Source: Candidatus Hodarchaeota archaeon (lineage in GTDB: Archaea; Asgardarchaeota; Heimdallarchaeia; Hodarchaeales; Hodarchaeaceae). From it: DNA of 38,034 bases. Where the stretch lies: assembly GCA_016840035.1 (NCBI GenBank), contig JAEOTC010000062.1, forward strand, positions 1-38,034. Direction: 5' to 3'. Position numbers and translations under genes: made by a program. Below are positions 2 to 38,034 of this stretch, piece by piece. The notes beneath the pieces were generated by a model. It ran no database searches and had not been told where the DNA came from. It saw only the letters and a program-made list of their open reading frames with translations. Positions within the stretch are counted from its first letter, which is position 1. Each line of letters begins with the position of its first letter.

Positions 2-1705
2 CCTGTCAACGACATTATTGGTACAAGATTTGAGAAGAACATTCATCCCGAATCGATGGAGGAGGTGGTTCAAAGGTATAAAGACCGAATGCGTGGAATC
101 GATGTTCCCTCAATATATGAAACATCTATAGTCATGGTAAATGGAGAGAGGCTCGAAGTCGAACTAAACGCTGGTCTGATCAATTATCAAAATCGTCCGG
201 CTGATCTCATTTTCGTTCGTGATATTTCTGAGAGAAAACGGATCAGTAAAGAGCTAGAGGAAAGTGAAGAAAGGTTCAGAACTTTAATTACAACGATGGG
301 AGAAGGAGTTTGGGTAACGGACAGTAGAGATAGGACTATTTTTGTGAATAAGGCATTAGAAGCAATGTTGGGATATACGGAGGAGGAATTAATGGGTAGA
401 TTAGTGACAGATTTTCTCTCTCCTGATTCGTGGAGAAACTTCGAAGAAGTGGTCAAATCTCGCCTTGAAAAGAAATCTCTTTCCTCAACCTACGATATGA
501 CATGGATCAAGAAAGACGGATCATCATTAATAACTAGAATTTCTGGAACTGTTTTATTGGATGAAAATGAGAAGATGATCGGCTCTTTTGGTGTGTTTAC
601 CGATATTACTATTCAAAAAGCAATTGAACAATCATTACAGGAATCTGAGGAGCAGTACAGAAATCTTGTAGAACGAGCAAATGATGGGATAGCAATCGTC
701 CAGGATAGTAAAATTGCCTATGTAAATCCAAGTCTATCACAGATTAGTGGATATTCGATTCCTGAATTAATTGGTAAGTATTTTGTGAATTTTCTTCATG
801 CTGATGTGATACCTGAAGTTGAAGACATATATCGTCGCCGTATGGCTGGTGAAGATGTCCCAAATATTTATGATTCTCTTATTCGCAAAAAAGACGGGTC
901 AAAAGTAGAAGTCGAGTTTAATGTGGGAATTACTACACATCAAGGTACTCCCGCTGAGTTAGTATTTATCCGTGATGTTTCAGATCGAAAACGGGCTGAA
1001 AAGCTCCTATCACAGGTGAAATTAGAAGAGGAACGTTATCACGCAATGCTGTCCCATTTTGTCAATAATGATCTTCAAAAGATTGTAAATAATCTAGATT
1101 TAATTCGACTGGAATTAAAACACAAAGGGAATACTGATCCAGAAAACATCCAAGAGATTATAAGTATTGCAGATCAGTCGTCAAGGACAATTGAGACTGT
1201 GAATAAAATTTTTGACGTGCTTCAATCACCTGTTAAAGAATTTAAGTCTGTCTATAGCATTTTAGATGTGATAAACGATATTCTTCAGGAAAATCCGGGA
1301 TTTAAGGGCCAAGTATCTGTGAATAAACCAAGTCTTGATCGACTACTATTATGTGATCAATTTCTTAAAACAGCTTTAATTGAGATTTTACAGTTCATTC
1401 AGACTTCCTGTGAAGGAGAAAATGCAAAGACGGTACCTATCAAAATGGAGGGTGGATTACTGGCTGCTTATTACCGCATAGTCATTAAAGATACTTACTC
1501 TCCTCCTATTTCTGAAGAAGTAAGTTATCGTCTTTCAAGTAAGATTACTGACAATTGGGAGTATCAAGGACACTACATAGGATTATCATTATGTTCAGTT
1601 ATTATGCAACACTATGGGGGGACACTAAAAATTCTACCCCTAGTGAAAGAAGGAAATGAATTTCAATTACTCTTCCCCTCAATACTTGTTTCATCAAAAG
1701 AATAA
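2..1705 (+). CDS. Multi-PAS sensor protein with degenerate histidine-kinase-like C-terminus (5' end outside window)
   Basis: The frame is open from position 2 (PVNDIIGTRFEKNIHPES precedes the Met at 56). Three PAS/PAC repeats end in RDISERK, TDITIQK and RDVSDRK. H-box-like LSHFVNNDL; G2-like GHYIGLSLC..IMQHYGG. Confidence 0.85.
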   Translation, partial: PVNDIIGTRFEKNIHPESMEEVVQRYKDRMRGIDVPSIYETSIVMVNGERLEVELNAGLINYQNRPADLIFVRDISERKRISKELEESEERFRTLITTMGEGVWVTDSRDRTIFVNKALEAMLGYTEEELMGRLVTDFLSPDSWRNFEEVVKSRLEKKSLSSTYDMTWIKKDGSSLITRISGTVLLDENEKMIGSFGVFTDITIQKAIEQSLQESEEQYRNLVERANDGIAIVQDSKIAYVNPSLSQISGYSIPELIGKYFVNFLHADVIPEVEDIYRRRMAGEDVPNIYDSLIRKKDGSKVEVEFNVGITTHQGTPAELVFIRDVSDRKRAEKLLSQVKLEEERYHAMLSHFVNNDLQKIVNNLDLIRLELKHKGNTDPENIQEIISIADQSSRTIETVNKIFDVLQSPVKEFKSVYSILDVINDILQENPGFKGQVSVNKPSLDRLLLCDQFLKTALIEILQFIQTSCEGENAKTVPIKMEGGLLAAYYRIVIKDTYSPPISEEVSYRLSSKITDNWEYQGHYIGLSLCSVIMQHYGGTLKILPLVKEGNEFQLLFPSILVSSKE

Positions 1706-1738
1706 GAAAAAGAAAAAAAAATACGGAAAGTCCGTATT
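1706..1738 (-). terminator. Hairpin plus poly-T terminator downstream of gdhA
   Basis: Stem aatacgga (1720-1727)/tccgtatt (1731-1738) with a 3-nt loop, followed on the minus strand by a long T tract. It lies between two convergent genes. Confidence 0.65.
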
Positions 1739-1749
1739 CAAAGTATATT

Positions 1750-3114
<1,365 letters not shown>

Positions 3115-3416: not shown

Positions 3417-6401
3417 ATGACAATACCATCTCCGAACCATTCAAAGATTGAAGAGATAAAATTCGATTATAAACCGAAATATCAAATTTTCCATGAGTTA
3501 ATGATTAATCGGATTAATAAAGTTCTCCTCGTCTCAAGTTATTATGATAATTTTATACTTGAGGAAGACGGAAGGCTTTCTGATCAAATTTTCGAAGAAT
3601 TTCACAATTTAAATCTCCGAACTCTCCCTGTGATTACACGTGTGGCAACCGCAAGTGAAGCATTAAGCCTTCTTCGAGAACATACTTTTGACCTTGTTAT
3701 CACTATGCGACGATTGGGGGATATTGATCCTTTCTCATTTGGTACACAGGTAAAAGCAATACAGAAAATACCTGTCGTGCTTTTATTAAACAACCCTGCT
3801 GATGTTCCGTATCTCCCAGATATCACATCAGGTGAAGGAATCGATAAGATATTTCTATGGAATGGTGACTCTACAGTCTTTGTAGCTATCATTAAACATC
3901 TTGAAGATAAATTGAATGTTGAGCATGATACGCGTGTAGGACTGGTTCGAGTAATAATTGTTATTGAAGATTCAATCCGTTATTATTCCGTGTTTCTTCC
4001 TATTATCTACAGTGAAATCATGAAACAAACACATCGTTTAATTTCTGAAGGAGTGAATGATTACCACCACCTCTTGCAGATGCGAACCAGACCTAAGATC
4101 TTATTGGCTTCGAATTATGAAGAAGGTATGCAGTATTATACAGAATATCGGAAATCAGTGATTGGGATAATTTCTGATGTTCGTTTCTCTCGTGAGGGAG
4201 TTTTAGATGAATCAGCAGGGTTAAAATTTATCAAATACATCAAAGAAGATAATCCCACATTACCAGTAGCTTTACAATCAAGTAATGAGAAAAATCGTAT
4301 ACGTGCTGAAAAATTAGGAGTGTTTTTTATTAACAAATTCTCTAGGAAATTATTGAAGACACTTCGTGGATTTATGCTTAACTATCTTGGTTTTGGTGAT
4401 TTTAAATTTAAACTAAATGATGGAACAGAAGTTAGTAGAGCAAAAAATATACTAGAGCTTGAACGAGGTATTGCAACTGTGCCTGAGGAATCACTGATTT
4501 ACCATGGTTCGCATGACCACTTTTCTGGTTGGTTAATGAATCGTGGAGAATTTGATATTGCCCAGAGAATTAAACCAAGGAAAGTATCTGAGTTCACACA
4601 ACCTGAAGATTTACGCAACTTTCTACTTTCAGCTGTTAATTCTATAGTGGAAGAAAAGACTGGAGGAGTTATCAATGACTTTTCCAGAGATACTTATCAT
4701 TCCTCAATTCGTTTTACTCGTCTTAGACCGGGTTCTTTAGGGGGGAAGGGACGGGGGATTGCATTTCTACAATTTTTGTTGAATTCGTTTCTCTTGGCAG
4801 ATGAATTATCAGAACAGGTATCTATCCGTATTCCAAAAACTGTGGTCATAGGGACAGATGAGTGGGATCGTTTTATGGATGATAACGAAGAACTACATGA
4901 AATTGCGTTATCTGATACTTCTGACGCTGAAATTAGAAAAAGATTCACTAAAGTGAAACTAGATAAAAAACTTGTTTCTGATCTTCGTCACATCCTTAAA
5001 ACACTTACCGGTCCACTCTCAGTGCGCTCTTCCAGCTTAATGGAGGATTCCCAGTTTCAACCTTTCGCTGGAGTATTCGAAACTTTCTTTTTAAGTAATA
5101 ACCAAGATTTAAAAACACGTGTTGAATTACTTTGCACCGCCATCAAGTTAGTATTTGCTTCTTCTTTCTTGGAACAGGCAAAAAGCTATGCAGAGTCAAC
5201 AGGTCAATCCATAGAGGAGTCTAAGATGGCTGTGGTAATTCAACAGGTAGTTGGTAGAAAAAGACCAAACAATTTGTCCTATCCTTGTTTTTCTGGAGTA
5301 GCTACATCATATAACTATTATCCAGTCTCATACATGAAACCTGATGACCGAATTGTATTTTTAGCCGCTGGATTAGGAAAAACTATTGTAGATGGTGGAT
5401 TAACCTATAGATATTGTCCAAAATTTCCTGAACTCAGCTTTTATTCTACCCAAGATCAGACGTTCGTAAATAGCCAAAAAGACTTTTTTGCCATAGATTT
5501 AGGTTCCAAATCAAAATCTTTCGAAAGAGGGGAAGACTCCTTCCTTATAAATTCAAGTATATTTGATTTAGACCCTATAACTCTAGATCGGATTGCTGAT
5601 ACGTATGATCATAATGATCAAATCATTAGGCCAGGATATAGTGGTGAAGGCGCACCAGTTATTAGTTTTAGCAGACAGTTAAAATATGGTGGATTTCCAT
5701 TTGCCAAACTGTTATCCAAGATTCTTCTATTGGGGGAGCAAACAATGGGAAGTTCGGTTGAGATAGAATTTGCGGGAAATTTTCAATTAGATCCCAAGAA
5801 GAAGACAACATTCTACCTATTACAGATTCGTCCTTATACACAATATGAGGCTATTCTAGAGGAAGAAAAAGAAACTGCTCCAAAGGATCAAGTATTAATA
5901 CGATCAGGTCTTGCCTCTGGTAATAGCATTCTAAAAAACATTCATGATGTAGTTTATATTAAACCCGAGACGTTTGATAAGTTGAAAACTCCAGAGATGG
6001 TTCTAGAAATTGGAGAGATAAATAAACGATTGAAGAAAAAGGACACCCCTTATATTTTGATCGGATTTGGGAGATGGGGAACATTTGATTCATCTTTAGG
6101 TATTCCAGTGAAATGGCACCATATTTCAGGTGCTCACGTCATCATTGAAGCTGGATTAAAGGATTTTCAGGTAGAACATTCTCAAGGGAGTCATTTCTTT
6201 CAAAATATTACCACAGCTAATATAGGCTATCTGTTTATTAATTATAAGTCCGAAGATGATATCATAGATTGGGAGTGGCTTTCAAAACAAGAAGAAATAG
6301 AAGATATGATTTATTCCAAACATATCCGAGTACAAAATCCCTTTTATGTGAGAGTAGATGGGCGTAAACGTAAAGGGTTCATCCTTAAACCAGACGATTG
6401 A
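3417..6401 (+). CDS. Receiver-domain-containing PEP-synthase/PPDK-N (ATP-grasp) family protein
   Basis: Two N-terminal receiver-like folds (FDLVITMR; IISDVRF). PPDK_N motifs GGKGRG, VRSSSLMED, FAGVFET, MAVVIQQVVG, GLGKTIVDG, EIEFA..LLQIRP. C-terminal GRWG...SQGSHFFQN domain. No PEP/pyruvate-binding barrel. Confidence 0.85.
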   Translation: MTIPSPNHSKIEEIKFDYKPKYQIFHELMINRINKVLLVSSYYDNFILEEDGRLSDQIFEEFHNLNLRTLPVITRVATASEALSLLREHTFDLVITMRRLGDIDPFSFGTQVKAIQKIPVVLLLNNPADVPYLPDITSGEGIDKIFLWNGDSTVFVAIIKHLEDKLNVEHDTRVGLVRVIIVIEDSIRYYSVFLPIIYSEIMKQTHRLISEGVNDYHHLLQMRTRPKILLASNYEEGMQYYTEYRKSVIGIISDVRFSREGVLDESAGLKFIKYIKEDNPTLPVALQSSNEKNRIRAEKLGVFFINKFSRKLLKTLRGFMLNYLGFGDFKFKLNDGTEVSRAKNILELERGIATVPEESLIYHGSHDHFSGWLMNRGEFDIAQRIKPRKVSEFTQPEDLRNFLLSAVNSIVEEKTGGVINDFSRDTYHSSIRFTRLRPGSLGGKGRGIAFLQFLLNSFLLADELSEQVSIRIPKTVVIGTDEWDRFMDDNEELHEIALSDTSDAEIRKRFTKVKLDKKLVSDLRHILKTLTGPLSVRSSSLMEDSQFQPFAGVFETFFLSNNQDLKTRVELLCTAIKLVFASSFLEQAKSYAESTGQSIEESKMAVVIQQVVGRKRPNNLSYPCFSGVATSYNYYPVSYMKPDDRIVFLAAGLGKTIVDGGLTYRYCPKFPELSFYSTQDQTFVNSQKDFFAIDLGSKSKSFERGEDSFLINSSIFDLDPITLDRIADTYDHNDQIIRPGYSGEGAPVISFSRQLKYGGFPFAKLLSKILLLGEQTMGSSVEIEFAGNFQLDPKKKTTFYLLQIRPYTQYEAILEEEKETAPKDQVLIRSGLASGNSILKNIHDVVYIKPETFDKLKTPEMVLEIGEINKRLKKKDTPYILIGFGRWGTFDSSLGIPVKWHHISGAHVIIEAGLKDFQVEHSQGSHFFQNITTANIGYLFINYKSEDDIIDWEWLSKQEEIEDMIYSKHIRVQNPFYVRVDGRKRKGFILKPDD

Positions 6402-15978: not shown

Positions 15979-18594
15979 CTAAACTTGAAGGAAACTACTC
16001 ACAAGTAGTCCCTCTAGGAGCTGTTTTTCTTGATTATGGGGAGGTAAGCATTCTGCCACAGCTTGACAAAATGGTCCAAAGGTACTACTTATCGAATCCT
16101 CTGTTGAATCCAAAAGCTGAGTCAATGTTTTCTTGTCATTTGACTTCCAGGCAAGAATTGCTCTATGCATCAGATCAATCAAGTGAGAATTTTCCGTATG
16201 AAATTCTGTCCTCTGCAATGCTGACTTAATAGTTACTTTAGATCCTTCAATTTTAACAAAACCATCATCTTTCGAATAATGTTTTAAATCAATACCGTAA
16301 GCTTGGGCGAGGACTTGAACTTCTCCATATTCTACAGTTGACTCTCCATAAGTCCATCGGTAGGCAAGATAAAATTGCCCTGTTTCATCAATCTTTGCAC
16401 TTGGAGGAATATCAGTCAAAATTTGAAACAAAAAGCTAGTGGAGGTTTTTCTGATATGAGATAATTGCTCTGATATAGAGACTTTTTCTCCAGAATATTT
16501 CAAAATAGTCTTATACTGACTAAATATTTCCATACCTGGACCGATAGCTGAGATAAAAAAGTCCCCTCCACGAACACCATCAGACCAGAATCGCTTCAAC
16601 CGAGTTTTAATATTATTTTCAGCCTCAGCTGCGATTTTTCGAAAGTAGCCATCTGATTTTTGTCTTCCTTTCCGACATACCAGATAGATCGAGGAGGCTA
16701 ACGCAGCGGAGGTTCTCGCTCTTAGCCTAGTTTTCATCTCTGTGTTAATAGGCCACGAAGAAGTGATTGTAAATCCCGCATCTATAAGTGCACCCAGCAT
16801 AGTTTCCCAACCCTTTGTCGATTTATGTGCGTAAACGAATAGAGCAATTCCATCTGGGGAAAGAACTCGGTAGATTTCATTGAATGCCTTTGCAAGTTCA
16901 TTTTCAAAGAAAGCTTTTGGATTCTCTTGACGACCTTTATTAGCTACAATCTCCAGCGTCTTTGGAGTCAAGGGAGTCGAAAACAATTTAGGATGAATTT
17001 CTCCTATGGCTCGTTTAAACCAGACATAGAAAAAATCTGAGAGATCAGCGTAAGGAACATTATCATAATAGGGAGGATCAGTTATAACTGCATCAAAAAA
17101 ATTATCAGGGAAATCTAAATTGGTCGCGGAGGCTTGATTGATACTTGCTTTGGTGCTAGCTTTCCAAGAATTATTTTGTAAATATCGAATTACCCATTCA
17201 GTTTGTTTCGACCAATCACCGTTTGCTCCAGAAAATACATTTAATTCCACATAATCCCATGCCATGGGAAGGGCGGTACGACCGAAAACATGTTCAATTT
17301 TTTCCCCATAGGCATTGTAAAATACTAGATTCGAACATTTGTCAGCTAATCGTCCAAGTATTATAGTCAGATAGGTAATTATGATTTTACTCAAATTATC
17401 ATTATCTATTGTAGAATTGGGATTGGCTTTCTTTAACCATTGGTGAATAGAAGCAGAGCTGGACTTAATTTCTTTTAGAAAATATGCTAGGGCAAGTAAT
17501 TGCCTTTCATTAAACAAGTCTTTCCATTTTATGAGGCCATAATTCTGAACACTGAATCCCAGTGTCCCTATTGGTGGTAATAGCTCATCTGGAATATATT
17601 CTGAAAAATTATTGTCATTCACAATAGTATCCTGAAGAAAGGATCCTGCTGAGTTGTAAATATCAATATCATGAGTCGTTGCGGGACGATAGATTTTATT
17701 AGCTTTCGTTGGATGACGAAGGATTACAATTGTCATGAACTGGTTAATTTTGTCTTCTTTAGCGTACTCTCGAATTGTGTTTGAAGAGATAACTTGTTGA
17801 CAAAAAAGACAACGGGCATTTGCTCTAGAAATCGTCCCCTCTGAGGGATTAAAATCAATCTCATCATTTTCTTGGATAATAAATGAAAGTGGGTTATTTG
17901 AATCAGAAGTAATTACCGGTTTGTAGGCAATTCGACGTTTTTTTGTACGAGCTAACCAAAAATGTTTGATTAGAGGAATTTTATGTCCACAGTTTGGATT
18001 TGCACAAGGAACTGTCCGAGCCCACAAATAGCCAATCGGGATATTTCCATTCTCGTCAGGAGGATAAAATTTTCCCAATTTAATTTTCACTCGATTTTGG
18101 ATTTGTTCAGCCCAATAGGAGACGTAATCTGATAATTCAGACATTCCAAGATGTTGAGGCCATTCCAACGTTGCTTTAGAAATTAAAACAGCTACTGGGT
18201 TCAAATCGGATGCGTAAGTTTCACAGCCTAATCTGAGAGCTTCAAGGGGTATCGAACCTCCACCCGAAAAAGGATCTAAAACTTTTGGGGGAGATTTTTG
18301 CCATTGAGCTCTAATTTTTTCTCTTCCTCTGCTGATAATTGAACTATTTAGAACTTTTATTTCATTCCAAGGGGAAATATCAGAAATTAAGTCAAGTAAT
18401 TCTTCTCGCTCCGAATCTGATGTAGGTAATTCCAATAAGGATGCTAGAATGGTTGCTCTAGAACTAGCGAGAGGACGACGAGCCCACCAGAGGTGTAAAG
18501 TGCTTGGATGACCATGTCTTACACTTTTTTCATGTCTCGAAGCATTTGAAATCTCCAACAATGGAAGATTCCATTCAATCATTCGCCTATCCAA
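15979..18594 (-). CDS. DUF1156-containing adenine-specific DNA methyltransferase with Zn ribbon
   Basis: HPSTLHLWWARRPL, SAM motif DPFSGGGSIP, CANPNC and CLFC, catalytic TDPPYYD. Confidence 0.9.
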   Translation of the reverse strand: MDRRMIEWNLPLLEISNASRHEKSVRHGHPSTLHLWWARRPLASSRATILASLLELPTSDSEREELLDLISDISPWNEIKVLNSSIISRGREKIRAQWQKSPPKVLDPFSGGGSIPLEALRLGCETYASDLNPVAVLISKATLEWPQHLGMSELSDYVSYWAEQIQNRVKIKLGKFYPPDENGNIPIGYLWARTVPCANPNCGHKIPLIKHFWLARTKKRRIAYKPVITSDSNNPLSFIIQENDEIDFNPSEGTISRANARCLFCQQVISSNTIREYAKEDKINQFMTIVILRHPTKANKIYRPATTHDIDIYNSAGSFLQDTIVNDNNFSEYIPDELLPPIGTLGFSVQNYGLIKWKDLFNERQLLALAYFLKEIKSSSASIHQWLKKANPNSTIDNDNLSKIIITYLTIILGRLADKCSNLVFYNAYGEKIEHVFGRTALPMAWDYVELNVFSGANGDWSKQTEWVIRYLQNNSWKASTKASINQASATNLDFPDNFFDAVITDPPYYDNVPYADLSDFFYVWFKRAIGEIHPKLFSTPLTPKTLEIVANKGRQENPKAFFENELAKAFNEIYRVLSPDGIALFVYAHKSTKGWETMLGALIDAGFTITSSWPINTEMKTRLRARTSAALASSIYLVCRKGRQKSDGYFRKIAAEAENNIKTRLKRFWSDGVRGGDFFISAIGPGMEIFSQYKTILKYSGEKVSISEQLSHIRKTSTSFLFQILTDIPPSAKIDETGQFYLAYRWTYGESTVEYGEVQVLAQAYGIDLKHYSKDDGFVKIEGSKVTIKSALQRTEFHTENSHLIDLMHRAILAWKSNDKKTLTQLLDSTEDSISSTFGPFCQAVAECLPPHNQEKQLLEGLLVSSFLQV

Positions 18595-26239: not shown

Positions 26240-27382
26240 TTAGATAGCTCGTTTGATAACGCCTGGACCTTGCTCTTGATATTCTTTGCGAGCAACCCAT
26301 AATCTTTGGAAGGTCTTGAGGGAGGAGAGAATAGAACCACCAATCCAAACAGAGTAACGACGTTCGGGAGGGGCAACGATACGAATTTCCACATTATCAG
26401 GGACAAGCTCGGTGAGTTCTTTGTGGAGACGTTCTTTTAATCCAGGGAACATGGTTGATCCACCAGATAGAACAATATTTTGGTAAAGTTCTTTTCGAAG
26501 GTCAATATCACAAAGTTGAACGGATGCATAGATAGCTTCATCTAAAGGTGTTTCTTCTTTTCCGATAGCTGATGGATTGAAGAATGCTTCAGGGGCTAAG
26601 AATCGTTCAGGACCAATGGTTAAGGTTTCACCGTCAGGTAAGGTATATTGTTTTTCCATACCAGAGACTTTTTCAGCTAGTTTGAGTTCCTTTTCAGGAT
26701 CCAAAGCAACATAACATAATCGCTCTTTGATATCTCGCACAATTTCTCGTTCTGCGGAAGAGGTTAATGCACGACCTCGGGTACGTAATAATCGACGTAG
26801 ATATTCAGTAATATCACGACCAGCAATATCAATACGACTAATTGCATGAGCAATTGCGAATCCTTCATAAATGGGTACGATGTGTATAACACCATCACCA
26901 GCATCGATAACTAGACCAGTTGTTCTTCCAGAAGCATAGAGTGAAAGCACAGCTTGCATAGAAACATACATGGCTGGAACATTGAATGTTTCAAAGAGGA
27001 TTTCAGCCATCTTTTCTCGGTTCTTTCCTGGATTAAGAGGAGCTTCGGTCAAGAGAACTGGATGTTCGCTTGGGTTGACTCGTAGGTCATTATGGAAAGT
27101 ATAGTGCCAAATCTTTTCCATTGCATCCCAGTCGGTAACTACTCCATGGACAATTGGGTAAATAAGTTTTAATACACCCCGTAGGTTCATAGCTTCTTCA
27201 CCTACGTAATATTCACGGACATAGTGATCTACATCAGACATAATGGATTGGTATTTGGGATATCCAATTAATGTAGGAAAAACTGAACGAGGTTGATCCT
27301 CACCAGCGTAACCATTTTTTGATAAACCAGTACCATTATCAATAACGAGGGGTTTACCTGTAATTCCTTCTGCTAGGGACAT
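26240..27382 (-). CDS. Asgard (Lokiactin-like) actin
   Basis: [78 protein letters not shown] and [16 protein letters not shown] are close to eukaryotic actin. ATG at 27382 preferred over GTG at 27391. Confidence 0.97.
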
Positions 27383-27560
27383 TTTTATCACTTAGTTTTT
27401 TCGTTGTATTTTGTTTCTCAAACCTAAGTATACTCCACCACTCTATTTTTTGATTTCGTGGTTTTCCTTTTATATACTCGAACAGATATCGTTTCACTCG
27501 AGTAAGTGAAACTGTTTCTGCGGGTTCGATTGGCTTAATGCAAGTCAAAGATGTTCTTGT

Positions 27561-29776: not shown

Positions 29777-32389
29777 TTGGAACTAAACCAAAAAATCAAT
29801 GTTGAGAAGGAATTAATTCTTTTAGATGCAGATTATTCTATTTCCTCCAATCAACAATCTTCCAATATTCATCTCTGGGGGAGAAGTGGTCCACAAAGAG
29901 TGGAAGTCGTTGTTACTGGATTTTTTCCTTATTTTTATGTTGAAGCTCCCGAAATAGCAGTCCAAGATTTAATAAAAACAGAGGATGAGACATTAAAATC
30001 CTGGATTATCCGAACCGAAACATCTCAAAAGCATACCTATTTTGGAGCTGAGAAAAAAAGACTTACCCGAGTGGTTGGACGACGACCGTATCAGGTTCCC
30101 AAGATCCGTGATATCTTCAGAAAGAATGGATTCAAAGTCTTTGAAGCTGATATTCCCTTTACAAAACGTTTTATGATTGATCAGAAAATAAGAGCTCTTC
30201 ATTTTCTTACCGTAAGAGGGAGGATTATTAGTGAAACTTCCAAGGAGCTGGTATTAGAAACAAACTACCGAAATGTGCAATTCAATGACTTACAAGAACT
30301 AGATTATCGTCCCTTAATTCTTGCATTCGATATTGAAGTTAATGAACAGGGGGAATCTTTTCAGGAATTATTTGCTGATAAAAAGCGTAGAATAACTGCG
30401 ATTTCTTATGCATGGGGAAAAACAGGAGTATCTATTCCTGATTCCAATGCACTCATCCTAACTGAGGATACTGAATTTGCTGAAAAGAGACTATTAACCG
30501 AATTTTTGAATACTATTCGAAAAATTGATCCAGATATTCTTGTGTCCTTCAATGGAACATATTTTGATTTTCCCTATCTTCAAGCACGAATGGGTCGTTA
30601 TGGCCTTTCTTTAGGTTCACTCGCGTTATTCGAAAGACGTCAAAATGACATAATTAGAACCACTGTTCCCAATGATGGATATCGGTTGAAAGGACGAGCC
30701 ATTGTGGATTTGATCCCCCTCACTCGCTATATTCATCCCTTATCAGGAAAAAAGAATTTGGATACTATTGCGAATTTACTTTTGGGGGAGATGAAGGTTA
30801 AATCGGAGAAGAGTCTTGGGCAATTGTGGAGAAATGGAGTAAAAGGATCGCTTACTGATGCCAAACAATTTTATGATTATTCAATTACTGACTCCATTCT
30901 AACGTTTCGATTAGTTGCCGAATTAGGCGTTCTTACCAGTATTGAGCTCTGTAAATTATCAGGGTATCCCCTACCAGAAGGTTTACTCTCCACAAGTCGT
31001 AATATTGGAGAATTTGAATTAATGCGTATTTTGCATGAACGAAAGATTCTTATTCCTTCTAAACCCACAAAATCCGAGATTTCAGAACGGAATACATTAA
31101 AGGAGAAATATCCTCATCTTGGAGGGTGGGTTATTGACCCTGAAGTAGATGAAGCGTTATTTGTGGCTATTTTTGATTTTCGATCTCTTTATCCAAACAT
31201 AGTACGGACCCATAATATTTCTGGGGAAACTCTCATACCCCATTCAGAGAATAGAAAACCTGAAGCTCGTTTCCTAAAGAATCCAAGGGGTGCTTTTGCA
31301 GACCTTATGGATCGAATTCTAAAAGAAAGATATCAGTCTTTGACAACTCTAACTTCTCTTAAGAAAGAAGAATTATCTCCCAAACGAAAACATGAAATTC
31401 AATTACTTGAAAAACAACAACGTTCATTGAAATTAATGGCAAATTCATTATGTGGAGCCGCCAATTACCCACGCGGACGTTTTTACCACCATCTTCTTTC
31501 AAATAGCATTACAGGTATTGCTCGAGAACTATTGGGTGAACGTTTACAGGATTGGACAAAAGAGTTTTCCAAAATCCGTGATTTTACCGTCGAAGTGCGA
31601 TATGGCGATACAGATTCGATTTTTTGCGAGTTCATTAGCATTAGCTTAGACCCGACAAAATTTCTATCCTCTCACCCTGAGAAGAGTCGAGAAAAGAGTA
31701 TTAAAGTACTTAAGAGCTATATTCAAGAATATCAGGCGTTTCTTTCGGAGAAATTGCCAGACCTCCTTGAGCTGAAACTTGAAGATATTGCTCTCAGGAT
31801 AATTTTAAAGAAAGGAAGGAAAAAGGCTTACGCCTATCTCTCTCTCCTAACCCAAGAGGTTATTATTCGCGGGTTTGAGGCGGTTCGATCTGACTGGTCT
31901 CCTCTTGCAAAAAAAACTCAACGGAAATTACTTGAAATATTGCTAATGGATTTTAGTGAGAGTCGTGTATATAATGCTCGGAAATTTGTGATTGAGACAT
32001 GTCGCTTTATCCTTCGATCACCTGTTGAAATCTTACTTTCAGAGCTAAGTATACGTGGCCCAGTTAAACGAGCCCCCACAAAATATAAAACTCGAACTCC
32101 TGCCGTGGGAGCATTTTTAAATTATTGTAAAGCCCAGAATCTTGATCCTGAGGTTGAATGGAAACAGTGGGATGGATTTCCATACATTATTGCAAAATCT
32201 TCTATCAATCAACCACAATTTAAGCGAGCGTTTCATCCTGATATTTTTCAGAAAGGTAGAAAGGAAATAGACCGGTTTCATTACATTAAAGAAATACTTG
32301 GAGCAAGTAACCGATTCGGGATCTCACTCAATGAGAACGAAGCCTTTCACGGTCGTTTCATTATTCCCTTGACCGAATTTTTTGCCTAA
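29777..32389 (+). CDS. polB: Family B DNA polymerase with 3'-5' exonuclease domain
   Basis: ExoI FDIE, ExoII FNGTYFDFPYL, ExoIII YSITDS; motif A DFRSLYPNI; motif B KLMANSLCG; motif C YGDTDS; RGFEAVRSDW; C-terminal LTEFF. Confidence 0.93.
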   Translation: MELNQKINVEKELILLDADYSISSNQQSSNIHLWGRSGPQRVEVVVTGFFPYFYVEAPEIAVQDLIKTEDETLKSWIIRTETSQKHTYFGAEKKRLTRVVGRRPYQVPKIRDIFRKNGFKVFEADIPFTKRFMIDQKIRALHFLTVRGRIISETSKELVLETNYRNVQFNDLQELDYRPLILAFDIEVNEQGESFQELFADKKRRITAISYAWGKTGVSIPDSNALILTEDTEFAEKRLLTEFLNTIRKIDPDILVSFNGTYFDFPYLQARMGRYGLSLGSLALFERRQNDIIRTTVPNDGYRLKGRAIVDLIPLTRYIHPLSGKKNLDTIANLLLGEMKVKSEKSLGQLWRNGVKGSLTDAKQFYDYSITDSILTFRLVAELGVLTSIELCKLSGYPLPEGLLSTSRNIGEFELMRILHERKILIPSKPTKSEISERNTLKEKYPHLGGWVIDPEVDEALFVAIFDFRSLYPNIVRTHNISGETLIPHSENRKPEARFLKNPRGAFADLMDRILKERYQSLTTLTSLKKEELSPKRKHEIQLLEKQQRSLKLMANSLCGAANYPRGRFYHHLLSNSITGIARELLGERLQDWTKEFSKIRDFTVEVRYGDTDSIFCEFISISLDPTKFLSSHPEKSREKSIKVLKSYIQEYQAFLSEKLPDLLELKLEDIALRIILKKGRKKAYAYLSLLTQEVIIRGFEAVRSDWSPLAKKTQRKLLEILLMDFSESRVYNARKFVIETCRFILRSPVEILLSELSIRGPVKRAPTKYKTRTPAVGAFLNYCKAQNLDPEVEWKQWDGFPYIIAKSSINQPQFKRAFHPDIFQKGRKEIDRFHYIKEILGASNRFGISLNENEAFHGRFIIPLTEFFA

Positions 32390-32588
32390 AGATAAAAAAT
32401 TTACTGGTTGAATATCTTGTTAGCCCTTTACATCCAGTTAAGGATCATTCTCTGAAAATAATCTTGATTGGTGGGCGTTACTAATTCTTAGGACACCCAT
32501 CAAATACCTGTTCTAATACTTGGTATCTAATATGACTCAAGGTTTTGTCTGATGTAGAAATTAGATTCTTTCTCTTACCAGAAACGTG

Positions 32589-35500
32589 ATGAAAATGATT
32601 AAATTTAGAGTATTTAGCCTAACTATTCTTGCAGTCTTGTTACTTGGTGTGATACAAGTTACATCAGCTAATTTATCCTTGGATCAAGGTATTAAAGGAA
32701 AAACAATCTTAAATAATCAGGAGTATCAAGTACCTGATTTTGAAACTGAAATTCAGCCTATAGATCAACCTGAATTATCAGTACCCAATACATTCGATCC
32801 TAGTCCTATATCCCTTAACAGTCTATCCCCAGAAGTATCGTCAAAAGTAACTCAGGCTGATGAAGAACGGTTAATCATTCAGATTGACCTTGAAAAGACA
32901 ATTACTCAACCAGGTCAACCCCTCAAATATATCATCCAAGCTTCACGTGGTTTAAATCCTGCGTCCGGAGAAAGACTCAAGCTCGAGATAATCAAAGGAG
33001 AAGACTGGGGTTGGTATCATTATTATTACTATGATACAATCGAGTATGAGGATCGTATCGTAGAACAAAAGATTGTTACCACTGATGCAGATGGACAATA
33101 TGAGGGAGTATTTCAGACATCTAATAGTGGAAGATATTCCATTATCATCCGGGATGAATGGGCAGATAATTATTATAAATCACGTTCATTCAATATTGCT
33201 GATGTGGGTATTTTCTGGCGAGTATCACGTGAATTTGTTAAAGGCCAGCCCCACTATTCGGTTGCTTATGTGTTAAATACATCTGACTTTTCTCCGATCA
33301 TAGGGGCAACAGTCACATTAACGGGAGAATTATACGATTATCACTGGGAATCTCGCACGTATTCTGTAGAATCTGAGCATCTATTCGGTGGAATTTCCGA
33401 TGCTCAAGGTATAACAGAAATAACATTTACTCCCCCATCCAATTTTAGTGAAAATTATAATTTTATGGCCAACCTTTCCGTGACGTATAATGGTGAGACA
33501 ACTTATGTACTAAGGAATCTGTATCGTGGAGGTTACTATTGGACCTCAGACGGGTATCAAGAGTTCACTCCTTACGAATTTATTGTAACTACTGACAAAC
33601 CAATTTATAACCCAGGAGAAACAGTACAAGCTCGGATTCTTTTATGGCATAATGATTATTTGAAAGCGACGAAGGAACCTGTCTCTACATCGTTCATCTT
33701 GAAGTTGCTTACCCCCTCTCAACATACATTATTTCAAAAAACTCTGACTACAAATTCGTATGGAGTAGCTGAATATTCTTTCGAACTTGATTTGGAAAGT
33801 GAGTTAGGAGATTATAGTATTATTACGCAGAAGGAAGAAGTAATATCCACAACAGATATCCGCGTTGATAAATATGAAAAACCTGCATATCGGGTTGAAA
33901 TTGAATTAGACAAAGAGTATGTTGCTCCTGGCCAAAAGGTTTCAGGGATATTAAGTGCTATTTATTATTTTGGCAAACCTGTGATCAATGGAGAAGTGGA
34001 ACTGAAGATAGGCGAATTAAGTACCCTATCTGGAGTTACAGATGAAGATGGATTATGGACTTTTTCCTATACTTTACCAAAATCCTTGGAGAATAGTGGT
34101 TTACACGCATTATCCCTAAACGCGACAGTAATTGATACTGTAGATCGGGAAGTAACAGTTTCTACCTCAGTTCAAATAACGGAAGACGTTTATGTCTATG
34201 CATGGGTGAATCCTTGGTTCCCAAAAGCTGATGAGAATGTGAGTTTATATTTCGGTGCATATCAATATACAGCTGGATTATATTATTGGAGAAGCTATCA
34301 ACCTATGCCAGAAGCTCCTGTCACCATCAAACTCTATGGTTTGATATCAAATACTGTATCCATTTATTTGACCTCTTATCAGACACAAACCGATGCAAAT
34401 GGATATGGGCGATATGAATTTGCTGTACCACAAGAAATCCTAGTTTTAACTACCAGATTCAAAGGAGTTATAGAATTAAATTCGGATGATGGACGAACTG
34501 GTGAATCTACGTTTTATTTCTCAGTAGATCTATTAAAAGCGGATGTTTCCCTTGACTCGGAGACTTATTCACCTGGTGAAACTGTGAATGTAAACGTGAA
34601 CCTCTTGAGTATCCTCACATTTAGTCAACTCTCTGGAAGTGTCCGTGTTCGTATATTTGATGCAGATTATGAACTAATTGGAGAAAAATCTAGTGACATT
34701 CCCACATCTGGGGGAACTTTTTCATTCCAATTATCCTCCTTTGCACCTAATGGCCGATATTATGTACATATTTATGTAAGAAAAACTTTTACATATGAAT
34801 GGGGGTCCTATAACTATTATAAGTACGATACATCTGTAACGTTTACTGTAGGCTCTTCTCAAGAGCTTCTATTGAATTTGGATAAACCTAGTTATTCACT
34901 AGGCGATAGTATGACAATTTCAGGACAATTACAAGGTGAAACTAACGCCCCAATAATGATTCAATTTGTCAAGAAGGGAATTCTTACAACCCAGTATATT
35001 CCTCAGAACACTGTGAGTTCATTTAGTTTAACTGTTAGCGATATTTCTTTGTTTGCACCCAAAGTTTGGATATATGGTTTTGCAATATTAACCACAGGAG
35101 TAGTACAAGAGGTACGTTTGTATGTAGAAATAGATCCTACTCTTACAGTAGAAATTGAATCAAATAAGAATACCTATACCCCAGGTGAAGAAGCTGAAAT
35201 AAACATTCAAGTTTACGACGCTAATAAAAACCCTATCTCAACTGTTCTAGCAATCTCTTTCATCGACAGTTCTGTTTTTGGCGTTGAGCCTGATCCTGAA
35301 AGTGAACTCGAACACTTCAAAGAACAACAATTCTGGCCCTCAGTTTGGACTGTTACATCGTGGAAAAGTCGACAGTTCGACTGGTGGTTCTGGTGGTATG
35401 ATGATTTCTATGGATTTGGCTATCCTTCCAATTGGAGAGGAGGAGGAGGTTTTTTCATGGAAGAGGATTACGCAGTAGCTGGAGATCAGGGAACAAAATC

Positions 35501-38034
35501 ACCTTCGGAAGCTCCTGTCGAGGCTGATGTGGGCCAAAAGATTCGAGATAATTTACCTGAAAATGCTTACTGGATGCCCTTTGTTGTCGTAGAAGACGGT
35601 TCCATTTCCATTTCTATCGTACTTCCTGATACTATCGGAGAATGGACAGTTCGTGTTGTGGCAACCTCCACGACCTCTGGTATTGGTACGTTAGAAAAAT
35701 ATGCCTTTAAAACATTCATTCCGTTCTTTGTTGAGATTGTCAAGGATCCTTTTGTCCTCCAAGATGATATTTTCATTATAAAAGGAGTTGTGTACAACTA
35801 TCTAGGTGAATTAACGGACATAGATGTATCGATTGATCCAGCGGATGGAATTACTGTATTAGGTGATGATACACAAAGACTTAAACTCCCAAGTGACTTT
35901 TTGGGTTCAATTTCTTGGGCTTGCTTAGCTGAAGATGCTAATTTCGTAAATGTTACATTATATGCAACTACCGAGTTGAATAACGGATCTCGTTATTCCG
36001 ATGCCATCAGAAAAGCTGTAGACATTATCCCCAATGGAGTGGAGACAGAATTCAAAACAAGCGGATTTGTTTATCAAGATCCACAATTCGATTATTTCCG
36101 CTATACAGAATCAGTAAAACAGGTTGAATTCCTTGAATTATCATTAGGTCTTGGATCAACTGCAATTAGCTCTTGGGAACGTCTAGTGGGTTATCCTTAT
36201 GGATGCACAGAACAAACTATTTCTCGTGTTGTTCCTGATACTCTTATCCTAGATTATCTCAACGAAACTAATCAATTAACGAATGAGACTAAAGATCTAC
36301 TGACTGATATGATTGTTACAGGCCTATCTCGTTTGTACAGCCAGCAGCATCACGATGGTGGATGGGGATGGTGGTCAAGTGATTCTTCCAGAATTTATAT
36401 GACCTCCCTTGTCCTCTATGGTTTAAGTGCGGTTAGAGATGTAGGAATCTATGTAGAACCTTCGGTAGTGAAAGAAGCATTATATTCCATCCTAGAAAAA
36501 CAAAACTCTGATGGAAGCTGGACTGTTGACTCCTGGAGGAATATCGATAAAGTAGCATTTACTGCATTTGCTTTACGCTCCCTAATCTATTGGTCATCCG
36601 AGTTATCAGACCTAGATCCAATAAATGATGCCCTTGCCTATATTTCTAGTACGTGGAATGGAGATTCAACTAAACGATCTTCATACTTAGCAGCTCTTTA
36701 TCTCGATGCAGTTATGGATTCACCCTTCGGTTCAGCTGCATTCGAATCATCCGTACTAGCCTATCTACTAAGTGAAGTTCAATTATCAGGAAACGGTAAC
36801 TTTTGGAAATACACCACCTCATCTGGATATTATTGGAGAGCTCTCGGTGGAGATGTAGAAATAACTGGTCTAGCATTAAAAGCATTAGTTAAGTCTGATC
36901 CTGCGGCCCACATGCCTATCATCCGCGGAGCAGTTCAATGGATGTTAGGAAGACAATCGAGGTGGGGTTGGGGCAATACAGCAGATACCTCTGCAGCAAT
37001 TTCAAGCCTAATAACTATCAGTAAAGAGGGATTTAGTTCGAATGACGATGCTAATGTAAGTGTATTTCTGAATGAGGAAGAAATTGGAAACTACAATCTT
37101 TCTGTAAGTGGAGATTCCGTTATATATTTGAATCTTAAATCTTATATCCAACCCGGGGAAAATAATTTTACTTTCAGCAAATCTGGGACAGGTAATGTGA
37201 GTTACTATTTCTATGGTCATCAGACATTACGGTCATTACCCGATATCGTTTTACCTGCAAAAATCAGTGTAGGTGTGGATCAAGAAGTAAATCTTCCTAT
37301 TCAGTTATCTCCAACTTCAACAGCGATTTTCGCAGCAAATCTGACAATAAATCCAGTACAAGGAGATATACTTCCAATCATTAATCTCCCTCAAACTATT
37401 CAGTTATTGACACAAGTAACTACCCTTAACTTTAGATATGAAGCTCCTTCGATTCCAGGGACTTATTCAATTCCTGGATTTGAAATCTCTTACCTTCTAT
37501 CAGATAGCGCTCAATCTTCGTTTTCACCTGGTATACTGAGTCGTCAATATGGACCAATTGAGCTAGAAGTACTTAGCTCAATAGAAGGAATGCTTCCAAC
37601 ATCAATATCCATTCCAGAAGAACTTCCTGAACCTAAAGTCCAAATGAGCCGATTAATGGAATCTAGTGTTACAGGTTTAACCTTAGAACGAGAATTTTCA
37701 AGCCAAAGGAATATCCAACCTGGTGATTTAATCATTGTTACTCTTAGAGTTACGAATGCAAATGAGTCAATGAACTTTTTGATGTTAGAAGAGTCCATCC
37801 CTGCTGGTTTCTCTCTAGATCCAAGTACAATCAAGCATTCTCAGGAAACATATACAATTACAAGTGTAGGTATTACTTTCTTCTTTTCTCAATTACCTGA
37901 AGGAGATACTCAGGTGAAATATGGACTCATTGCATCAAATATCCGTCAATCACTTGTAATCCCTTCAAAATTATCAAGCATGTACGATGATTGGATGGTG
38001 AAAAGTACACCTGCAGTTCTAGGAGAAGCACGAG
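32589..38034 (+). CDS. Secreted alpha-2-macroglobulin / thioester-containing protein (3' end outside window; absent from ORF track)
   Basis: Manual translation, all in one frame: signal peptide MKMIKFRVFSLTILAVLLLGVIQVTSA; TDKPIYNPGETV (33591); VDKYEKPAYRV; IRDNLPENAYW; LPDTIGEW; YPYGCTEQ (CTEQ at 36204-36215); QHHDGGWGWW; DVEITGLAL; WGNTADT; EESIPAGF; SMYD near the window end. Confidence 0.93.
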   Translation, partial: MKMIKFRVFSLTILAVLLLGVIQVTSANLSLDQGIKGKTILNNQEYQVPDFETEIQPIDQPELSVPNTFDPSPISLNSLSPEVSSKVTQADEERLIIQIDLEKTITQPGQPLKYIIQASRGLNPASGERLKLEIIKGEDWGWYHYYYYDTIEYEDRIVEQKIVTTDADGQYEGVFQTSNSGRYSIIIRDEWADNYYKSRSFNIADVGIFWRVSREFVKGQPHYSVAYVLNTSDFSPIIGATVTLTGELYDYHWESRTYSVESEHLFGGISDAQGITEITFTPPSNFSENYNFMANLSVTYNGETTYVLRNLYRGGYYWTSDGYQEFTPYEFIVTTDKPIYNPGETVQARILLWHNDYLKATKEPVSTSFILKLLTPSQHTLFQKTLTTNSYGVAEYSFELDLESELGDYSIITQKEEVISTTDIRVDKYEKPAYRVEIELDKEYVAPGQKVSGILSAIYYFGKPVINGEVELKIGELSTLSGVTDEDGLWTFSYTLPKSLENSGLHALSLNATVIDTVDREVTVSTSVQITEDVYVYAWVNPWFPKADENVSLYFGAYQYTAGLYYWRSYQPMPEAPVTIKLYGLISNTVSIYLTSYQTQTDANGYGRYEFAVPQEILVLTTRFKGVIELNSDDGRTGESTFYFSVDLLKADVSLDSETYSPGETVNVNVNLLSILTFSQLSGSVRVRIFDADYELIGEKSSDIPTSGGTFSFQLSSFAPNGRYYVHIYVRKTFTYEWGSYNYYKYDTSVTFTVGSSQELLLNLDKPSYSLGDSMTISGQLQGETNAPIMIQFVKKGILTTQYIPQNTVSSFSLTVSDISLFAPKVWIYGFAILTTGVVQEVRLYVEIDPTLTVEIESNKNTYTPGEEAEINIQVYDANKNPISTVLAISFIDSSVFGVEPDPESELEHFKEQQFWPSVWTVTSWKSRQFDWWFWWYDDFYGFGYPSNWRGGGGFFMEEDYAVAGDQGTKSPSEAPVEADVGQKIRDNLPENAYWMPFVVVEDGSISISIVLPDTIGEWTVRVVATSTTSGIGTLEKYAFKTFIPFFVEIVKDPFVLQDDIFIIKGVVYNYLGELTDIDVSIDPADGITVLGDDTQRLKLPSDFLGSISWACLAEDANFVNVTLYATTELNNGSRYSDAIRKAVDIIPNGVETEFKTSGFVYQDPQFDYFRYTESVKQVEFLELSLGLGSTAISSWERLVGYPYGCTEQTISRVVPDTLILDYLNETNQLTNETKDLLTDMIVTGLSRLYSQQHHDGGWGWWSSDSSRIYMTSLVLYGLSAVRDVGIYVEPSVVKEALYSILEKQNSDGSWTVDSWRNIDKVAFTAFALRSLIYWSSELSDLDPINDALAYISSTWNGDSTKRSSYLAALYLDAVMDSPFGSAAFESSVLAYLLSEVQLSGNGNFWKYTTSSGYYWRALGGDVEITGLALKALVKSDPAAHMPIIRGAVQWMLGRQSRWGWGNTADTSAAISSLITISKEGFSSNDDANVSVFLNEEEIGNYNLSVSGDSVIYLNLKSYIQPGENNFTFSKSGTGNVSYYFYGHQTLRSLPDIVLPAKISVGVDQEVNLPIQLSPTSTAIFAANLTINPVQGDILPIINLPQTIQLLTQVTTLNFRYEAPSIPGTYSIPGFEISYLLSDSAQSSFSPGILSRQYGPIELEVLSSIEGMLPTSISIPEELPEPKVQMSRLMESSVTGLTLEREFSSQRNIQPGDLIIVTLRVTNANESMNFLMLEESIPAGFSLDPSTIKHSQETYTITSVGITFFFSQLPEGDTQVKYGLIASNIRQSLVIPSKLSSMYDDWMVKSTPAVLGEAR

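Follow-up and report, generated by a model that had tools for sequence, protein, structure and literature searches.

Homologues of alpha-2-macroglobulin (A2M) in archaea were described by Makarova et al. (2021, Front Microbiol 12:721392, PMC8416519) as proteins with immunoglobulin-like (Ig) and macroglobulin (MG) domains, a thioester domain (TED) with an intact CxEQ motif and a predicted signal peptide, and were read as surface proteins of the conflict or immunity type. Halobacteria and Methanomicrobia are the groups treated in the text of that paper, where Asgard archaea go unmentioned; its supplementary phyletic table, in a machine-converted copy, appears to list two proteins in Heimdallarchaeota LC_3, which are not discussed. 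In bacterial A2Ms, the thioester is shielded by two TED tyrosines (Tyr1175 and Tyr1177 in the Salmonella protein SaA2M) together with Met1625 and Tyr1626 of the C-terminal MG domain; in the eukaryotic members, all four pocket residues are supplied by the C-terminal MG domain (Fyfe et al., 2015, PMC4498604). Two 2026 reviews of A2Ms list only metazoans and Gram-negative bacteria and no archaea (PMC12939704, PMC13069473), and one of the two repeats the hypothesis that bacterial A2Ms were acquired from animals. A literature search found no paper linking Asgard archaea with thioester proteins, and the matches to Asgard together with macroglobulin were irrelevant. The A2M gene described here lies at the end of a 38,034-nucleotide stretch of DNA (the window) from a member of the Hodarchaeales (Candidatus Hodarchaeota archaeon, GenBank assembly GCA_016840035.1, contig JAEOTC010000062.1). 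Its product belongs to a coherent Asgard clan of predicted membrane-anchored thioester macroglobulins, which has been overlooked in the A2M literature.

At its end the window carries a real A2M-family gene, which is complete when two contigs are joined. The window is the whole of one contig (C289) of an assembly of 4.30 Mb with 293 contigs and 36% GC. On the forward strand, positions 32586-38033 comprised 1,816 codons with zero stops, and the 3' end was open at the contig edge. The long uninterrupted frame that had been claimed from the DNA alone was searched for an in-frame stop, and none was found. The first codon of the frame is the GTG at 32586, from which residues are numbered here; the ATG at 32589 (MKMIKF...) is the likely start, because the homologues begin with MKMIKH or MIKN. 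The gene had been called hidden, and it was merely unlisted, because no stop codon occurs inside the window and the open reading frame listing left it out for that reason. A tblastn search of the product against the assembly gave a 42-residue match of 100% identity at the very start of a second contig (C263), and no paralogue was found at E 1e-3. The last 127 bases of the window were the first 127 bases of C263, and this exact 127-mer occurred nowhere else in the assembly. Extension of the contig had been proposed to reach the C-terminus, a possible anchor and the downstream genes. It gave 141 added residues, with a transmembrane (TM) helix followed by RKRRI and a stop codon, and a completed protein of about 1,956 amino acids (aa) counted from the ATG; downstream on C263 were a histidine kinase gene and a gene of 246 aa. 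The closest homologues had 1,954-1,961 aa and a nearly identical ending of a TM helix plus RKRG/RI, and this tail recurred in homologues of 1,940-1,991 aa. The orthologue in the closed genome CP070695.1 is flanked by the gene of a family-B DNA polymerase (PolB) and by a 250-aa gene on the minus strand, whose counterpart on C263 is the 246-aa gene (47% identity). The join of the two contigs is supported by the homologue lengths and tails and by this synteny.

Pfam analysis, one of the checks that had been proposed, gave matches above the curated cut-offs to five families in the canonical order MG2, A2M_BRD, A2M, TED_complement, and bMG10. MG2 matched residues 332-427, with a second stretch near 657-730; A2M_BRD matched residues 763-898, A2M residues 994-1081 (E 2.4e-13), TED_complement residues 1196-1475 (E 4.9e-26), and bMG10 (PF17973) residues 1706-1801 (E 2.3e-07, 31.5 bits at a cut-off of 26.2). 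The weak matches to squalene cyclase and prenyltransferase reflected the alpha/alpha toroid shared with the thioester domain. In NCBIfam, no A2M model matched and the squalene-cyclase matches were sub-threshold only; for the extra domain at the C-terminal end, Pfam gave only sub-threshold matches to DUF7743 and Big_13. The number of MG domains, as read from secondary structure, is approximate.

Alignments of Asgard homologues served as input for two AlphaFold2 models. The N-terminal one, of residues 26-975 (pLDDT 80.0, pTM 0.70), was all-beta, with disordered parts at residues 26-92 and about 934-975; its best Foldseek E-value was obtained with the native E. coli A2M (5a42), and the next ones with C5, A2ML1, and CD109. 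The model of residues 975-1816 (pLDDT 82.9, pTM 0.73) superposed on native TEP1r, CD109, A2ML1, C5, and A2Moo (frog A2M) with Z scores of 28-30 and a root-mean-square deviation (rmsd) of 3.2-4.0 Å over 590-630 residues. Native forms, including those of C3 and C5, fitted this model (TMq 0.60-0.65), whereas activated C3b did not (0.29). The thioester domain of the model matched C4Adg and C3d with Z scores of 27-29 and an rmsd of 2.7-3.0 Å. The bacterial structures 4u48 and 4ziq were not among the 50 matches shown for the C-terminal model. The assignment to the family of A2M and the thioester-containing proteins (TEPs) in the original prediction is borne out by the domain order and by these structural matches.

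The thioester motif GCTEQ was located at residues 1206-1210. The reactive cysteine, which had been placed at about residue 1206, is Cys1207 in the numbering from the GTG (nucleotides 36204-36206). The Met-Tyr dyad of the C-terminal MG domain (M1799-Y1800) sits in the motif SSMYDDW. Across 72 aligned Asgard homologues, with identities as low as 26%, the residues Y, P, Y, G, C, E, and Q and the Met-Tyr dyad were invariant, and YxYGCxEQ was present in 105 out of 105 Asgard-type proteins retrieved; the site is intact, as had been claimed. Because YxYGC and the C-terminal Met-Tyr match the definition of Fyfe et al. (PMC4498604), the Asgard proteins carry, as judged from sequence, the complete bacterial-type pocket of four residues. 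No histidine was invariant or 90% conserved within residues 975-1816 of the 72-homologue alignment. Alignment to human A2M put the column that holds histidine in C3 and asparagine in A2M near R1318, in a shortened, gapped loop where the exact column is uncertain. The lack of a conserved histidine favours amine (lysine) capture as in A2M over the transfer to hydroxyls of the C3/TEP1 type, and the target chemistry would fit amine capture.

Only two hydrophobic segments occurred in the protein: residues 2-28, which are the signal peptide, and the C-terminal TM helix, which follows an Ig-like domain located after the C-terminal MG domain. The protein is thus best described, from its predicted topology, as a type-I membrane protein anchored by its C-terminal TM helix. 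It had been expected to be either secreted or at the surface; the surface location is supported, whereas secretion is contradicted by the tether encoded on C263. The signal peptide contains no cysteine, in agreement with the reported lack of a lipobox. Three cysteines, including that of the thioester, were present among the 1,956 residues, none of them before residue 1112. The N-x-S/T sequons, which had been described as many, numbered 16, compared with 14.1 ± 3.3 in shuffled sequences, and this is the chance level with no enrichment. The receptor-binding-like domain that had been predicted corresponds to a C-terminal domain that is present, of type bMG10 and not of the eukaryotic A2M_recep type.

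Residues 932-986 were the least conserved internal stretch of the protein, with 92 insertion columns among 90 homologues. This loop has a conserved aromatic lead-in (DWWFWWYDDFYG), a core of acidic and small residues varying in both length and sequence, and a conserved exit (QKIRDNLP). Its pLDDT was 22-41 in both AlphaFold2 models. In the closest relatives (76-78% identical overall), the loop had 60-64% identity, compared with 79-85% in the MG and TED parts. By position, residues 932-986 are a good candidate for the bait region.

Word-indexed searches gave about 100 homologue clusters of 1,940-2,080 aa, and every named one was from Asgard archaea: Hodarchaeales (45-78% identity), Heimdallarchaeota, Kariarchaeaceae, Thorarchaeota, and Promethearchaeota/Lokiarchaeota. 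The cultured carriers were Promethearchaeum syntrophicum (P0138) and Ca. Lokiarchaeum ossiferum (P0146), and Ca. Harpocratesius was also among the clusters. In every full-length homologue, a signal peptide, the motif, and a TM helix at the C-terminal end were present. These proteins are labelled by NCBI as "MG2 domain-containing protein" or "alpha-2-macroglobulin family protein"; archaeal A2Ms are already published, and the window protein belongs to this known family, with a distinctive archaeal architecture. An exhaustive search returned 8,519 representative clusters at E ≤ 1e-3, with a score gap between the Asgard-type proteins (at least 275 bits) and all others (at most 256 bits), and the best 150 were all of the prokaryotic type.

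Among 301 genomes sampled across the Asgard phylum, the gene was present in 31 with the protein query and in 30 with the Pfam TED profile, covering 8 of the 70 genera. It was found in 16-17 of 20 genomes of the own genus, in 5 of 7 of family f27 and 4 of 68 of family f14, and in none of the 76 and 29 genomes of families f11 and f3, respectively; of the 90 genomes with a completeness of 90% or more and a contamination of 5% or less, 11 had it. The copies within the genus were 50-79% identical, and retention in 16-17 of 20 genomes at this divergence indicates purifying selection.

The Loki-type orthologues (P0050-P0060 and P0131-P0148) had a cytoplasmic tail of 40-70 residues after the TM helix, ending in a conserved acidic SF(L/I)D(E/D); the Hodarchaeales tail is RKRRI only and the motif is absent. 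This Loki-type ending could be a sorting or adaptor-binding signal. Ordinary A2M genes of about 1,560-1,650 aa, with 25-27% identity to the window gene, were also seen in other Asgard genomes (G225:C19, G028:C391, G148:C291, and G092:C155), and these may be bacterial-type acquisitions or bin contaminants.

In trees of prokaryotic sequences based on the MG-CUB-TED core, the Asgard clan formed one group, with a FastTree support of 100 (44 rows, stem 0.58) and an IQ-TREE (LG+C20, PMSF) SH-aLRT of 100 (16 rows, stem 0.75). Its sister group had FastTree supports of 69-76, and IQ-TREE gave a polytomy with three sets: C-terminally anchored proteins of 2,400-2,800 aa including a Thermoplasmata protein, a small group from which one contig has an archaeal Taw1-type gene, and the bulk of the bMG10-type bacterial A2Ms with Altiarchaeales and Nanoarchaeota proteins among them. 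The Asgard clan and many of these other archaeal A2Ms had two additions without counterpart in bacterial A2Ms, one of about 130 residues that separates the TED from the C-terminal MG domain and one of about 150 residues after the Met-Tyr dyad. The distance from the thioester cysteine to the Met-Tyr dyad was 591 residues in the Asgard clade and 460 in the bacterial bMG10-type proteins, and 170 residues rather than 20 followed the dyad, the approximately 150 extra ones being the Ig-like domain, the TM helix, and the tail. The giant thioester macroglobulins of 2,400-2,800 aa (P0186, P0191, P0194, P0197, P0206, P0208, and P0297), with a C-terminal TM helix and charged tails, grouped with the Thermoplasmata protein, and the contig of P0191 (L005) encodes a class-I LysRS. 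This giant group is a further archaeal A2M lineage, of which no description was found.

The features of the gene and of its surroundings are listed in the table below. The probable Asgard host named in the original prediction is confirmed by the lokiactin-type actin gene in the same window and by the closest homologues, which are named Hodarchaeales. The A2M gene has 37-39% GC, like the window, and the mean of the genome is 36%. PolB is a syntenic neighbour within the genus and not a functional partner. No gene occurs in CP070695.1 at the position of the histidine kinase, which therefore looks like a lineage-specific insertion, and the orthologue of P. syntrophicum has unrelated neighbours. 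The DNA was present in marine-sediment metagenomes, probably those of the source study. The left end of the window is graph-linked too, since positions 1-127 match, in reverse complement, the first bases of contig C126 (35.7 kb).

Table. Features of the A2M-family gene, its continuation and other genes; coordinates are those of the window unless contig C263 (L001) is named.
Feature	Coordinates	Strand	Basis or remark
A2M-family coding sequence within the window, residues 2-1816	32589..38033	+	stop-free open frame
Signal peptide, Sec-type, MKMIKFRVFSLTILAVLLLGVIQVTSA, without lipobox Cys	32589..32669	+	hydrophobic segment, residues 2-28; same N-terminus in homologues
Variable N-terminal linker, predicted disordered, residues 29-92	32670..32861	+	pLDDT 24-46; low conservation, many insertion columns
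About six MG beta-sandwiches and the bait-region-bearing MG	32862..35378	+	Pfam MG2 33579-33866, A2M_BRD 34872-35279; AlphaFold2
Candidate bait region, residues 932-986	35379..35543	+	between A2M_BRD and A2M domain, as in known A2Ms
MG after the bait, Pfam A2M (PF00207)	35565..35828	+	Pfam; beta-sandwich in model
CUB-like beta domain, first half, hosting the thioester-domain insertion	35898..36155	+	model strands 131-213; aligned with CUB/TED region of TEP1, CD109 and A2ML1
Thioester domain, alpha/alpha toroid, residues ~1191-1481	36156..37028	+	Pfam TED_complement; helical model segment 217-507
Thioester site Y1203-P-Y1205-G-C1207-T-E-Q1210	36192..36215	+	sequence; reactive Cys and Gln, two TED tyrosines
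CUB second half, ~130-residue beta-rich insert and disordered linker 1669-1694	37050..37667	+	model strands 515-689, pLDDT <50 at 695-720; no Pfam match in this stretch
C-terminal MG, bacterial type (bMG10), Met1799-Tyr1800 at nucleotides 37980-37985	37677..38024	+	Pfam bMG10
Continuation of the A2M gene on contig C263	L001:128-549, stop 550-552	+	tail translation, 141 added residues
Family-B DNA polymerase, directly upstream of the A2M gene	29777..32389	+	Pfam; PolB-A2M order also in CP070695.1
7TM-PAS-HisKA-HATPase histidine kinase, 655 aa, between the A2M stop and the 246-aa gene	L001 (C263) 576-2540	-	
Actin-family gene (lokiactin-type)	26240-27391	-	Pfam Actin E 1.5e-132; 5 kb upstream of the A2M gene
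871-aa protein, N-terminal DUF1156 and DNA-methyltransferase domains	15979-18594	-	architecture seen in phage-defence-associated methylases
Tandem TldD/PmbA-type metallopeptidase pair, 473 and 462 aa	12570-15381	+	
994-aa protein, receiver-like response-regulator region and PPDK_N (PEP-utilising, ATP-binding)	3417-6401	+	

On balance, the protein is probably a surface-tethered covalent trap for foreign proteases, of the prokaryotic A2M type. The ectodomain (the MG ring, the bait loop, the CUB-thioester domain, and the C-terminal MG domain) would lie outside the cell after removal of the signal peptide, held by a stalk (the Ig-like domain), a single TM helix, and, in the cytoplasm, a short basic stub. 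The thioester between Cys1207 and Gln1210 would form on folding and would be kept dry by Tyr1203, Tyr1205, and Met1799/Tyr1800. When a foreign endopeptidase cut the exposed, fast-evolving bait loop (about residues 932-986), the thioester domain would swing off the C-terminal MG domain, and the exposed thioester would acylate a lysine of the protease, which would end up covalently stuck and sterically blocked at the cell surface. The effect would be protection of the surface proteins in a cell without a wall or an outer membrane. To the observed gene, with its completeness, domain order, motifs, conservation, predicted fold, and topology, we thus add thioester formation, cleavage-triggered activation, and protease capture as we infer them from the mechanism of the E. 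coli and Salmonella A2Ms.

Several points weigh against such a trap. No pbpC, protease, or conserved partner gene was found in three contexts (this genome, CP070695.1, and P. syntrophicum); an operon with pbpC is frequent among bacterial A2Ms, though not universal. No RNA run was among the public runs listed with DNA of the A2M gene. The linkers at residues 29-92 and 1651-1700 were as variable as the bait loop, so that positive selection or acceleration specific to the bait is not demonstrated. The family was absent from about 90% of the sampled Asgard genomes, which indicates that it does not serve an essential surface function. The characterised bacterial traps have an N-terminal lipid anchor, whereas the window protein has a C-terminal TM anchor, an insert of about 130 aa between the CUB and the C-terminal MG domain, an extra Ig-like domain, and no pbpC partner; given these differences, the geometry of activation could differ.

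A tether of this kind would turn any covalent capture into an attachment of the cell to its target, and the same fold with native-like TED packing occurs in the opsonins TEP1 and C3. The protein might then be a TEP/C3-like tagger or a covalent adhesin, whose thioester bonds to the surface of a foreign or partner cell on activation or contact and so glues syntrophs together or marks intruders; the orthologues in the cultured P. syntrophicum and L. ossiferum, which are syntrophic and form protrusions, would suit this role. It is nevertheless unlikely, since the conserved histidine for transfer to glycan hydroxyls, the feature that makes C3, C4B, and TEP1 taggers, is lacking, the pocket and the C-terminal MG domain are of the bacterial protease-trap type, and neither ANA or C345C modules nor convertase-type partners are present. 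A self-triggered device for covalent capture at the surface, welding the archaeal membrane to whatever cleaves or contacts the protein (predatory or partner bacteria, viruses, or secreted effectors), is a bold idea to which we give a slightly smaller chance; if true, the closest prokaryotic relatives of eukaryotes would possess a primitive system, "complement-like" or for attachment between cells, that works cell-autonomously and arose independently of the animal TEPs. The very large, cysteine-poor, all-beta ectodomain with its stalk-like Ig domain and TM anchor, the lack of linked partner genes, and the existence of several bacterial A2M relatives without CxEQ would also suit a structural surface coat or spacer of MG/Ig domains, in which the thioester serves internal stability or is hydrolysed and nothing is trapped. 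Such a coat is improbable, because all Asgard homologues, down to 28% identity, retain CxEQ, both TED tyrosines, and the Met-Tyr dyad without exception, and a thioester that is not reactive and protected would hardly account for this; the bait position is occupied by a loop that is disordered and hypervariable, and the patchy distribution argues against a core component of the envelope. The protease trap is preferred to these three alternatives.

The origin of the gene was considered as well. The A2Ms are far commoner in bacteria (8,519 representative clusters overall), and a few Asgard genomes also hold the ordinary bacterial-type A2Ms of about 1,600 aa, as would suit a recent bacterial transfer or a binning contaminant. 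This candidate was rejected as scarcely credible: the gene lies between an archaeal PolB and Asgard genes with a lokiactin on the contig, its GC matches the window, a closed genome of the same genus shows the same PolB-A2M order, and about 100 closest clusters, where named, are Asgard and form one clan with a support of 100 and a long stem. The original prediction had further asked whether the eukaryotic TEP/complement family has archaeal roots, that is, whether the Asgard protein represents the archaeal stock ancestral to the eukaryotic A2M, C3, CD109, and TEPs. The host is an Asgard archaeon, and in a sequence search of the PDB human A2M was matched with 131 bits by the single protein and with 202 bits by the Asgard clade profile. 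Both the protein and the profile matched human A2M, CD109, TEP1, and C4 far better than the enterobacterial A2Ms (23-52 bits), which explains the impression of archaeal roots. The comparison with eukaryotes relies on profile similarity to PDB entries and on shared architecture.

A very large bacterial clade (P0065 and P0302-P0415) of about 1,500-1,850 aa with a eukaryote-type C-terminal domain (A2M_recep) was observed. Its members came from Myxococcota, Armatimonadota, Chloroflexi, Poribacteria, Abyssubacteria, and others, some with lipoprotein signal peptides, and its motif is M/L-x-F/G/S-GCxEQ in place of YxYGC. The homologue search with the bacterial P0065 (196 bits on CD109) gave bacteria only. 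The profile of this clade scored higher than the Asgard profile on human A2M [332 bits, against 202], CD109 (305 against 169), C3 (228 against 106), and TEP1 (215 against 156). The Asgard match to human A2M reached no further than profile position 551 of 837 and stopped short of the C-terminal MG domain, whereas the bacterial clade matched human A2M from end to end. In the tree, the two were separated by the longest internal branch (0.95, support 100), with the Asgard clan on the bMG10-type prokaryotic side. In the window protein, Pfam gave no match to the eukaryotic A2M_recep/RBD domain (PF07677), with bMG10 instead, and none to anaphylatoxin or C345C/NTR modules; the eukaryote-type pocket, which has no tyrosine pair before GCxEQ, was absent, the YxY pair being invariant. 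An ancestral archaeal stock is therefore very improbable: the C-terminal MG domain is bMG10 and the pocket is of bacterial design, the bacterial A2M_recep clade without the YxY pair outscores the Asgard profile on all four proteins, the clan groups with bMG10-type proteins across the 0.95 branch, no histidine is conserved, and the gene is present in just 30-31 of the 301 sampled genomes, or about 10%. The proposed tree, built with prokaryotic sequences, thus recovered one Asgard clan, and the ancestry idea that it was meant to address drew no support from similarity or architecture. On architecture, pocket type, similarity, and phyletic pattern, an Asgard origin of the eukaryotic TEPs is not supported.

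For eukaryogenesis this is a sobering result, with no evidence for archaeal roots of complement. Given the bacterial design and the patchy distribution, these proteins should neither be counted among the "eukaryotic signature proteins" nor be presented as the root of complement. The searches also revealed a very large diversity of prokaryotic A2Ms, including the bacterial clade with the eukaryote-type C-terminal domain, which bears on the still-cited idea that bacterial A2Ms were acquired from metazoans. The presence of orthologues in the cultured P. syntrophicum and L. ossiferum makes the function testable in the laboratory.

Compared with known systems, the window protein resembles the E. 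coli A2M (ECAM/YfhM; 4ziq, 4rtd, and 5a42) and the Salmonella SaA2M (4u48) in its long MG array, bait-region domain (BRD), CUB-TED, and bMG10 end. These bacterial A2Ms are monomeric and membrane-tethered, facing outward from the cytoplasmic membrane, and have the same four-residue pocket. The window protein differs from them in its low sequence similarity and in having no pbpC operon and no peptidoglycan or outer membrane around it, and a C-terminal TM helix takes the place of their N-terminal lipobox anchor. Its fold is also that of CD109 (8s3o), A2ML1 (7q1y), and Anopheles TEP1 (2pn5 and 4d94), whose native forms superposed with Z scores of 28.7-29.8 and an rmsd of 3.2-4.0 Å over 589-632 residues. 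CD109 is likewise tethered C-terminally to the cell surface, by glycosylphosphatidylinositol rather than a TM helix. The identity to these three proteins was 14-20%, and the window protein is without their A2M_recep-type end, the eukaryote-type pocket, and the conserved catalytic histidine of the TEP1/C3 type; the animal TEPs are rich in disulphides, whereas the window protein has three cysteines. The other anchored archaeal A2Ms (Thermoplasmata P0196; P0191, P0186, and P0297; Nanoarchaeota P0151; Altiarchaeales P0188) share YxYGCxEQ, the bMG10-type end, and a TM helix at the C-terminus with a charged tail; their spacing from the TED to the Met-Tyr dyad is similarly long, and they form separate clans with different lengths and N-terminal parts. 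With the archaeal A2Ms of Makarova et al., the window protein shares the archaeal genome, the signal peptide, the Ig/MG domains, and the TED with CxEQ; what goes beyond that description is the Asgard clan of proteins of about 1,950-2,050 aa, with its TM anchor at the C-terminus, its pocket of the bacterial type and its extra insert, its patchy occurrence, and its presence in cultured Asgard archaea.

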